Made by a program: the position numbers and the translations under genes
Assembly: GCA_039545335.1 (NCBI GenBank)
Contig: BCIN01000002.1
Coordinates: forward strand, 1-64,000
DNA: 64,000 bases
Reading direction: 5' to 3'
Source: Kondoa subrosea
Taxonomy: Eukaryota
Notes under the pieces: generated by a model
Database searches by the model: none
The model's input: only the letters and a program-made list of their open reading frames with translations
What the model was told of the DNA's origin: nothing
In this document: one piece after another, positions 57,693-62,899 of the stretch
Layout: the number at the start of each line of letters is the position of its first letter
Position numbering within the stretch: position 1 is the first letter of the stretch

Positions 57693-59891
57693 TTAACGTC
57701 GAGCCTGGTTCTCGGCGTTCTCCTTATCTTCCAAGTACTGTGCGATGTTCTTAGAGATGCCGAAGACATTAGTTTCTTTAGGTTTCTGTTGACGAATAGT
57801 AGGAACGAAGCCAAAGCGAGGTTGATTAGCTAATGACACAGATCAGCGTGTGACCTGGGAGGCTTTGAAGTGAGCGCTTACCACTGTGAAAACACGAAAG
57901 CAGGTCATGAGTAAAGATACTCAGGTCACGCTCAGTCGAGTCTCACCATCTGTCTTTACCACTGCAGAACAATGAGTATCGTTCATGACCTAGGGAAAGT
58001 GAACCTACTATGCAATCTTGTAGGCTGAATAATCATCGCGGTTTCTGATACCTTCAATCGCCTTGATAGCATTAGTGATGTTCGTGAAATTGACAAAAGC
58101 TACTCCACAATCAGCTTGCATTCCACTTTTTTCGTACCTTCTGTGACTCACCGCAATTCTTTTCTTGCAAAGTATTGATCAACTCAATCTCTCCGTAAGC
58201 GCCAAAATCCTTCTTCAACTTTTCTTCAGTGAAACTTTCGAAATCTTCAATTCCGCCAATATACACGTTCCTGCTTCCACCTGCATGAACAGCCATAGCG
58301 ATTCCCGCTGGTGTAGCTCCTGTAGGCTTGCCCCAACCAACTCGTAAGCGTTTGTTGCGGATTGTGATACCTTGAGAAGAAGCGAGAGTAAAGAAAGCTA
58401 GAGCTGCATTTGGATCGACGAAAGTAATGAAGCAGGCGTGACCTGTGTGGTATCTTCCCACTCAGCTACATATAGCGGAATTGAAACTTTGCACACACGT
58501 TCGGGAATATACTTAATCTCCTGTAGAACTCCGCCTCGGATAGAATTGCAAATCTCCTCCACAGTAGTTTCAGGGTTCAGATTGCTGTTGTCGAGCATGG
58601 GTTGATATCAGCATACGCTGACCATCCGCAAGCCCGCACTAACCCTAGGTAAACGTTCCGATTGCCAGGAATGTATTGAGTTTGGACATGCATCATTTGC
58701 TGTTGATTCTCAGGAGTGATGACGGGAGCGTAGGAAGTCAGAGAAGAAGTATAAGTCGCTGCCATTGCTGCTGCGGTAAGGTTGTGTTGCTGTTGATGAT
58801 GCTGATTCTTCGGAACATAAGCGCCTGTGAGAATGGACAGCCGATCGATCAGACATGATCTGAAGTAGATCGATTCGCAATGCTCACATCGATCTTTACC
58901 GAAATTAACCTTCCTTTTTGCCCATTCTGGATCATCTTGCAATTCTTCAACCACTTGGCAAGCCGTAGCAATACTCAAGAAATGAATGAATCCAATCCCA
59001 CGATCTCTCACAATCTTGACTTGATCAATCGGACCCCATTCAGAGAATTCATCCCTTAACATAGCTTCAGTGTAATGTAAACCTAAACCACCAACGAAAA
59101 CGTTTCTTGAAGCTTGTTGCGTTTTCACAGCTTCTAAAACCATAGCAGGTACAGGAGTAGGATTACCAAAACCAACTTTGAGCACTAAGTTGTGCAGAGT
59201 GATTTTTCGAATGTTTGCATCCGATTCAAAAGCTGCTGCGGTTGTTGCATCGAGGAAAGAGATGAAGGCACAAGACTTCTCTCCAATGATTCGAATGTTT
59301 TCGATCGGACCATAGCGGACTTGGTTGAGTAATTCATCGACGGATGCGGTGCACGGAAGATTGCCTGTGTGTAAACAAAACCCTCAATACCTGCAACGAT
59401 ACTTGACGATAGATCAACACACCAACATAAACTGTCCGCATGACAGCTTCATTCGGTTCAGGTAATCGAGGTGCCAATTGAGGCAAAGGAGGAGAAAGTT
59501 GATTTGGTGAAGGAGGTCCAAAAGCATTGAAAGAGCCGCTGGTAGGAGAAGGGAGAGCATTTTGCATGTGATTGTAGACGAAAGAGTGTTGATCGAAAGC
59601 TGAACGAGATGCTAGACTGCCAGAAGAGGATTCTGAAGTTGAAGGTGAAAGATCTGGAGGAAAAGTTGGAGATTGAGTTAGGAAGGAGGAAGAAGAGGAT
59701 GCGGATGAAGAAATAGGCGGTAAAAGAGGTTGCTGAGCTGCAGAGAATTGCTGAGGCCAACCATACTGATGAGCTAAAGCCGGTTGAAAAGCTTGCAAGT
59801 TTGGATCAAAGCGTTGCTTCTTTTCTGGAGATGATGGCATGAGACCAGGTGGTAAGATTGACAGAGTAAGTTCTTCCATGTTCCTTTTCAT
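57693..59891 (-). CDS. MRN1: Four-RRM RNA-binding protein, S. pombe Nrd1/Msa2 - S. cerevisiae Mrn1 family (start may lie up to ~120 nt further upstream)
   Basis: [67 protein letters not shown]. Confidence 0.9.
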
Positions 59892-60566: not shown

Positions 60567-62899
60567 TTAAGGAGTAGCACGCCTGTATCAATATATCAGC
60601 GAAACGAACGCGAGACTAAGCTGAGAATGACAAACTCAGTATATCTAGGGTATAAGCAGCTTTAAATCGATATCATAAGCTTCCCATTCTTGATGTACAA
60701 TAAGAAAAGACACTCACCACTCTCTAACGGTATACCTGTTAGTCAACCAAGCCAGCAGTCTTTCCACTCCCAAACCGTAACCTCCGTGTTCACAAGTTCC
60801 GTATTTCCTTTGATCCGAAAACCAATAGTAAGGTGATGGATCAATCCCTTCTCTTGCATAACCTTCCATGAGTTCAGTCATGTCCGCAATACGCATAGAT
60901 CCGCCTATCAGTAATTTCCTCTTCGCCGATCAACAACATTGATGGCTCATGAGCAGAAAAACACTGACCTGTAATCTCTCCTACATTAGGCATGAGCACG
61001 TCCACACTTTCAGTAAAAGCAGGATCTTCAGGGCATCGCTTCATGTAGAAAGCCTTGATCTCTCTGTGCAACCACGTGCGATTATAAGCTTAAAACAGTT
61101 TAGAACTGAACGTCACGCACTTGGGGAACCTCGTCAAGAAGATAGGAACGCCAATCTGATCCGTCATCTTCCTTTCTGGTGCTTCAGCAATATCATCTCC
61201 TACTACATGATGCACCGGACCATCATCTGTTTCTTTCATGATGTTGTGATCGTTGCAGTACTTTATAGCGTCTTTGTCTGTCAGTTCGTTCGTTTGGTTG
61301 AGCTATGGAAAGAGCAAAGCAAAAACGTAAACCGACAATCTAACCGCATGAATGGGCGAGCTGGTGCTTTGAAGCCTGGGTTGAGGGATTCGATCAATGC
61401 TGCTGTCACAGGGTTGGCCAGTAGTGTGTCCACGACAGAGCAGATCTGTGTGTCTTCATTCAATCAATACAACCAGAAGGCTGAGCTTGACTGATGCGAC
61501 GCACAACTTCTTCGATATGTTCCAGCATGTCATCAAAACTGATGAAAGCCAGTTCCGCTTCAACATGAGTATATTCAGAGAGATGACGACGTGTTCGACT
61601 GTGCGGCAACAGACAACATGAATCAAACAATGCTGAATACATTGCGATCGCGCGCACCTCTTTTCCGCTCTGAAACTTTCAGCGACGCAGAACACATCAC
61701 CTAAGGCAGGTAAGCATGTTTCGAGGTAGAGTTGGGAAGATTGAGTGAGGTAAGCTGGTTTGCCGTAGTAGTTGAACTCGAAGAGCGTAGATCCTCCTCT
61801 GTGACAAGTCGGCACACCCTATCAGCACATGCTGAAGAAGGAGTGCAGCCACTCACTCTACTGATGTCTGCACCATACATGGAGGAGTGACTTCTAGCAA
61901 TTCCAAGCGTTCGTACGTTGATCGGAAAGCTTGTAAAAGAGCAGCTCGAACTTTAAGGATATCCGAAGCTGTTTGTCCTCGAATGACTAGATGACGGTTG
62001 TCTGCTAATATTTCTGGACCAGCGTCCTGTACGCCGACGAAATCATGAAGCTGAAAGACAGCTCGTGACGACGAATTGCGCACCTCGTTAACTCTATTTG
62101 AGACTGCTTCGTCACCTCCTGGAGCACGACCAATAACAGACCACCAATCCGCTGTGAGTTCATGACCGTCTGGTGCTGATTTGCCAGCTGGTAAAGGTTT
62201 GATGATGCCTGTAATGACTATACTTGATTCGAGCGTTAAAGTAATTGCATCGTAACATTGTGCCTGCAATTTCATCATTAAACATATCCTGAGTATAGAC
62301 AGACGAGGACGTACCAAGTTTCCGCTGAGCACGCATTGAAGATAACCAGTTCCATCCCTCAAGACCAAGAAAGTTAAACCACCTTGCTGTCTCAATCTAT
62401 GCACCCAACCAAAGATTCTAACTCTCTTCCCTCTAGATTCAACAGCATGTTTCAGCTTGATCTTCTCCGCCGCTTCAGTGGGTTCCGACAGAACTATAGC
62501 TTTGGCATCTTGTAATTTTTTGGCTTCGAGTTCTGCTTTGCCCGAAGCGTCTGATGCTTGCTTCTGAGCTAATTCTTGCTGTCTCGCTTGCTTCTTCACG
62601 TGTTGCTCATACAACTTTTTAGCTTTTTTGACTGAGCTCGAAGTAGCTTCAGTGTAAGCAGGTGTAGGTTCTTCTGCTGTTGCTTGTTTCTTGACTAAGA
62701 CATTGATGCTTGTAGAATCACGTGCAATGTAAGCTCCAAGAACAGTAGAGTAAGGTGAGGCTTCGGTTCCTTGTCCAGCTGAATCTGAGCCTGATGCACT
62801 TTCGTCGACGTAAACTGTTTCAGACACTTTCAAGGCTGAAGTAGCAGCAGTCAAGGCTTCTTGCACTTGATCTACAGATTTCGAGAGTATAGCAGACAT
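60567..62899 (-). CDS. DED81: Cytoplasmic asparaginyl-tRNA synthetase
   Basis: [67 protein letters not shown]. Confidence 0.96.

Follow-up and report, generated by a model that had tools for sequence, protein, structure and literature searches.

An Nrd1/Mrn1-type gene on the minus strand of the window (the whole stretch of DNA analysed here, 64,000 nucleotides long and with a GC content of 46%) most likely contains an exon of just two nucleotides, TG, at positions 57883-57882. We consider it probable that this TG is a genuine spliceosomal micro-exon and that its use is constitutive. The exon would be bounded by two ordinary short introns, separated by just these 2 nt and located after RRM4 within the conserved GKDRC-ANxPR motif. 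The actual splicing, the order in which the introns are removed and the constitutive use of the exon are what we infer from the evidence presented below.

The membership of this gene in the Nrd1/Mrn1 family, which an earlier note on this DNA had proposed, was borne out by a match to RRM_1, by collinearity with named members and by the presence of GKDRC after both RRM2 and RRM4. Exon 2 matched Pfam RRM_1 over the cut-off (E 9.8e-15, 54.6 bits), and exon 5 scored 16.2 bits, under the 20.7 cut-off, because an intron splits that RRM. When exon 2 was used as query, 448 proteins were recovered at E <= 1e-3 (best E 3.9e-85); the best 120 of these 448 were all fungal four-RRM proteins with 57-65% identity, several of them named Nrd1 or MRN1, and the top homologues among the matches listed were basidiomycete proteins, 57-65% identical within RRM1-2. 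The predicted protein aligned collinearly with the homologues over residues 146-593, from RRM1 to past RRM4, with 262 identities in 454 columns against P0016. All the splice junctions of the model fell inside conserved sequence without any break of the frame, and the two motifs carried by the model, GKDRCAYVPK after RRM2 and GKDRCANQPR after RRM4, were both present in homologues. The gene was placed in a tree of 30 named homologues, picked from the 120, plus the model and with no outgroup; there it occupied a long branch (1.68), weakly joined (62/31) to Mixia, in a neighbourhood of Pucciniomycotina-type sequences. Upstream of the gene, positions 60714-61818 of the minus strand hold ORF pieces split by short introns, which look like parts of an aminoacyl-tRNA synthetase of class II (Asn/Asp type). 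No Rfam family reached its gathering score anywhere in the 64-kb window.

The gene and the features of its 3' end are the following:

60008-57693, minus strand: whole Nrd1/Mrn1-type gene, with 9 exons, 8 introns of 47-63 nt (all eight of the form GT..YAG), 621 aa and four RRMs, according to the gene model and collinear homologues.
58099-58009, minus strand: exon 6, 91 nt, the end of RRM4 plus the TA of a Tyr codon, from the model and the alignment.
58008-57962, minus strand: intron 6, 47 nt, GTAGGT..CTGCAG, splitting the Tyr codon in phase 2; its junction restores KIAYGKDRC as in the homologues.
57961-57947, minus strand: exon 7, a micro-exon of 15 nt, T GGT AAA GAC AGA TG, read as (Y)GKDR(C).
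57946-57884, minus strand: intron 7, 63 nt, GTGAGA..TTTTCACAG (ending in CACAG), phase 2 in the Cys codon.
57883-57882, minus strand: the putative 2-nt exon TG, the T completing Cys (TG+T) and the G starting Ala (G+CT).
57881-57830, minus strand: intron 8, 52 nt, GTAAGC..CATTAG, splitting the Ala codon in phase 1.
57829-57693, minus strand: last exon, CT AAT CAA CCT CGC.., that is, CT plus 44 codons plus a TAA stop (57695-57693).
57725-57717, minus strand: the word KEN, residues 612-614.

The letters and coordinates reported earlier for the exon, the introns and the TG were all confirmed on the minus strand, and the gene model reproduced both outcomes that had been read from them. Inclusion of TG gives YGKDRCANQPR followed by a tail of 45 aa, and skipping gives TGC TAA, a stop directly after GKDRC. 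Introns 7 and 8 are typical of the introns of this gene, being canonical GT-AG introns inside the range of 47-63 nt. Most introns of the gene have a CTGAT branch site; intron 7 does not, and CTGAG, CTCAT and ATGAC, at 37, 24 and 21 nt from its 3' end, are candidate branch sites as read from the sequence. Intron 8 has a branch-like CTGAT 13 nt before its 3' end. The region is a dense one, with three introns within 179 nt (57830-58008, minus strand), between which a 25-nt stretch of the mRNA is broken up into segments of 15 and 2 nt. The 15 nt of exon 7 are a multiple of three, and its skipping would stay in frame and yield KIAY-ANQPR, devoid of GKDRC.

The proposal that the 2-nt exon is needed to obtain both the family motif and the tail was upheld by an enumeration of all the one- and two-intron GT-AG paths leading from exon 7 to the tail frame, with 35 nt as the minimum intron length. 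Three paths, one with a single intron and two with a pair of introns, reached the tail frame free of stops; two of these three delete or replace GKDRC, and the path through TG was the only enumerated one that both keeps GKDRC and reaches the tail. CANQPR is obtained only when TG is kept, because its T finishes the Cys codon and its G starts the Ala codon. Among the best 120 of the 448 homologues, GKDR followed RRM4 in 120/120 (GKDRC is likewise given as 120/120), GKDRC[AG][NG]x[PA]R was found in 107, and CANxPR stood at the same place in 78.

The bare AG-NN-GT arrangement occurs at chance frequency. A loose scan of the window detected 10 pairs of intron-like stretches separated by 1-5 nt, 3 of them with a gap of 2, and 100 block-shuffles gave a mean of 6.5 such pairs, 1.04 of them with a gap of 2. 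The other tandem-intron pairs in the window had no backing from homology or from flanking reading frames. The TG exon stands above chance because of its context: its T is the third base of the Cys codon and its G opens the Ala codon, both of them conserved. One of these other pairs, with a 2-nt gap (CG), at 2712-2859 of the minus strand, adjoins the peptide REAQEEIGL, which we take to resemble a Nudix box; its frames fit more than one model. An origin of the 2-nt exon by local duplication was considered and rejected: the stretch shared by the starts of exon 7 and the micro-exon (CAGTGGTAA) is just 9 nt, and its score was reached in 50 of 1000 shuffles. No pairwise similarity among the introns was found in this duplication test.

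The tail reached through TG behaves as coding sequence. Its codon-usage log-odds were 9.3 bits in the predicted frame, versus -1.9 and -30.6 in the other two; for reference, windows of the same gene gave 9.6 ± 3.8 in frame and -15.3 ± 10.4 off frame, and non-coding windows just downstream had a mean of -14.2 and a maximum of 6.7. With the 45 aa of the tail as query, HMMER returned 6 matches in an exhaustive search, from which one was kept, P0125, a 55-aa ORF fragment on a Logan contig of 66.7 kb (library E 5.1e-4). This single, borderline match shares 23 of 42 residues with the tail (55%), ANQPRFGF being identical, and the similarity begins precisely at the junction Ala. Its protein sequence, by itself, reads V-ANQPR, which would fit an AG acceptor whose end coincides with base 1 of the Ala codon. 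P0121-P0124 were discarded as tail relatives, as they are tandem-repeat translations in which 4-7 recurring weak stretches inflate the E-values, and P0126 was discarded as having no reported matched stretch. P0121-P0124 are long proteins (repeat unit FGLQPNLVRTAGMPKTNVFGHIRASAQFGPNSRNAEN) with some 36-39% identity to the tail in each stretch, and are probably translations of satellite-like DNA in which a chance likeness was multiplied by repetition. The first ~17 tail residues could also be aligned with Sporobolomyces-type tails (..APRAFRGFDLRNQQRP). A word-index search for tail homologues in the longer and near length classes found none, and Pfam had no match to the tail. The tail, 45 aa long, is lineage-specific. 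Its coding-like composition and its homology, taken with the motif and the enumerated paths, imply that it is translated, which requires the 2-nt exon. We argue from the composition and the conservation of the tail that inclusion would be the selected product; the same evidence is silent on a second functional product.

These data bear directly on the possibility that the tail is not expressed at all. In that case, the 117 nt from 57946 to 57830 would be removed as one intron, or intron sequence would be retained, the protein would end at GKDRC or at GKDRW, or would have a short read-through, and the ANQPR frame would represent a relic in decay. A single GT..AG intron of 117 nt, using the same donor and acceptor, is mechanically simple, and an open frame of 49 codons is too short to be significant on its own. 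However, the tail and the rest of the gene have equally coding-like codon usage, its counterpart in another assembly retains the 55% identity given above, ANxPR is intact and in phase only via TG, and both inner splice sites are well formed, all of which makes an unexpressed tail improbable.

The earlier note had gone further and suggested a regulated switch, in which inclusion and skipping of the two bases would both be functional and would toggle a 45-aa tail, possibly bearing a degron and maybe under autoregulation. It is true that skipping leads at once to an in-frame stop after GKDRC and leaves the four RRMs intact. A stop placed in the last exon is normally not a trigger of decay under the exon-junction rule, and the stop created by skipping is located there, so that no decay of this mRNA would be expected. 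A regulated micro-exon switch has also been described for a Trichoderma transcription factor, in the portion of that report considered here (PMC11121469). On the other side, all the complete homologues have a tail after the motif, with a median of 72.5 aa, and the few that end there have the appearance of incomplete or mis-spliced models. Moreover, in Coprinopsis cinerea the omission of such exons typically results in a premature stop and is treated, in the part of the study drawn on here, as a matter of annotation and not of regulation (PMC12230235). Of the KEN-box-like degron, the word KEN was indeed found in the tail, but its conservation in related fungi was not: it aligns with LDN in P0125 and is present in 0/120 of the homologue tails (best 120 of 448). 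Autoregulation, for its part, is a conjecture that found no support: S. pombe Nrd1 prefers UCUU (PMC3261880), and intron 7 has a single such word and intron 8 has none, which matches the chance expectation. A second product arising from skipping is possible, and we hold a switch of this kind to be unlikely. Quite unlikely too is its more specific form, in which skipping regulated by, for example, starvation or mating signals would toggle between the full-length Nrd1-type protein and a form ending after RRM4, with the tail altering stability, localisation or partner binding.

Shifts of two bases are a common type of error, and an assembly or sequencing error, or a pseudogene, could in principle hide a true gene with one intron or none at this place, but no error would produce an entire second intron, complete with a GTAAGC donor, a branch-like CTGAT and a TAG acceptor, and the remaining gene is intact and collinear with its homologues, which renders this reading highly improbable.

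Recognition across the intron is the accepted model for organisms whose introns are as short as those of this gene, and each of the two introns, having a donor, a branch-like site and a YAG acceptor of its own, would probably be recognised singly by intron definition. Introns 7 and 8 would probably be excised successively and not together, since the intron 7 acceptor and the intron 8 donor share a stretch of ~10 nt and could not both be engaged at once. Either order of removal would leave the signals of the other intron whole, and the joined mRNA would read GKDR-C-A-NQPR and continue into the lineage-specific tail of 45 aa.

The motif was also inspected in metagenome loci, 80 of which were kept out of 407 confirmed, none above 65% identity. 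GKDRC-ANxPR was uninterrupted in 76 of those 80 loci, Agaricomycete-like loci among them, and 2 contigs end before the site. Two genomic loci of the 80, L066 and L070, have a single phase 2 intron in the Arg codon of GKDRC, 3 nt upstream of intron 7 of the window:

L066, 470-540, strand not given: Arg-codon intron in a metagenome locus.
L070, 535-602, strand not given: Arg-codon intron in a metagenome locus.

As judged from these sequences, the GKDRC-ANxPR motif is an apparent hot-spot for introns, whose positions differ between lineages. Among the proteins, P0019 has an in-frame insertion of 18 aa after GKDRCGG that looks like an unspliced intron, and four Logan proteins (P0050, P0073, P0078 and P0080) stop shortly past GKDRCGN with R-E-x, as expected from read-through of a GTGAG donor. 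Further upstream, intron 5 of the window (58100-58151, phase 0, after EKNC) has the same position as an intron in L066 (316-370), an Ustilaginomycotina-like contig, and is probably an old intron.

The main value of the finding concerns annotation: a gene finder unable to place a 2-nt exon would end the protein at GKDRC or run into the intron, and several public homologues are damaged in such fashion at the GKDRC-ANxPR motif. The gene also marks a motif with lineage-varying intron positions, and gives the growing list of fungal exons of 1-3 nt a homology-supported case from a conserved RNA-binding regulator. It would be of mechanistic interest only if regulated skipping were true, in which case two bases would provide an on/off control of a differentiation regulator. 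A role of Nrd1 in differentiation or mRNA stability is known for S. pombe only (PMC3261880). The window gene has the four-RRM architecture of S. pombe Nrd1/Msa2 and S. cerevisiae Mrn1, whose names its homologues bear, but its closest listed homologues are basidiomycete, its tail is lineage-specific and its function is a predicted one. The literature searched, for Nrd1/Mrn1 and for very short exons, yielded no report of a micro-exon in this family.

Several known systems resemble the arrangement proposed here. At recursive splice sites no nucleotides are left between the excisions, and in stwintrons an internal intron breaks up the donor, branch site or acceptor of an external one, with nothing left in the mRNA. 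The gene resembles both in having a donor just behind an acceptor (CAG|TG|GTAAGC), implying stepwise removal of neighbouring intronic segments, and differs from both in that 2 nt are kept in the mRNA and the two introns have complete signals of their own. A stwintron was accordingly rejected, as neither intron interrupts the other and the 2 nt must stay for the frame.

Single-nucleotide exons have been described inside a conserved P450 motif of Fusarium CYP621A (PMC12940212) and in Arabidopsis APC11 (PMC4674806). In the portions of these reports considered here, both cases are like that of the window, the ultra-short exon being situated in a highly conserved motif, flanked by AG and GT, required by the phase and spotted via homologues (PMC12940212, PMC4674806). 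The summed 'intron' was about twice the usual length in CYP621A and APC11, and in the window it is 117 nt against 47-63 nt (PMC12940212, PMC4674806). Those exons are of 1 nt and not 2, and come with transcript or reporter evidence and conservation in orthologs, whereas the window exon is predicted from sequence (PMC12940212, PMC4674806).

For a switch, the nearest parallel is Xlr2 of Trichoderma virens, where both mRNAs were observed and depend on glucose, according to the excerpt of that report used here (PMC11121469). Like the window gene, it is a fungal regulator in which a micro-exon in or out gives a long or a short protein, although the isoforms of Xlr2 have been observed and those of the window are predicted from its sequence (PMC11121469).

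The long-read annotation of C. cinerea lists, in the section considered here, 13 exons of 1 nt, 57 of 2 nt (in 50 genes) and 27 of 3 nt, and in 63 gene models an alternative stop arises when an exon of <= 3 nt is left out (PMC12230235). Those exons rest on full-length transcripts, and TG, in another gene and another organism, on homology. As far as that section goes, the 2-nt exons of C. cinerea are, like the TG of the window, nuclear and spliceosomal, belong to an intron-rich fungus and have the same consequence for annotation (PMC12230235). With 2-nt exons already documented in fungi in this way (PMC12230235), the TG described here is probably a further example, in a different gene.
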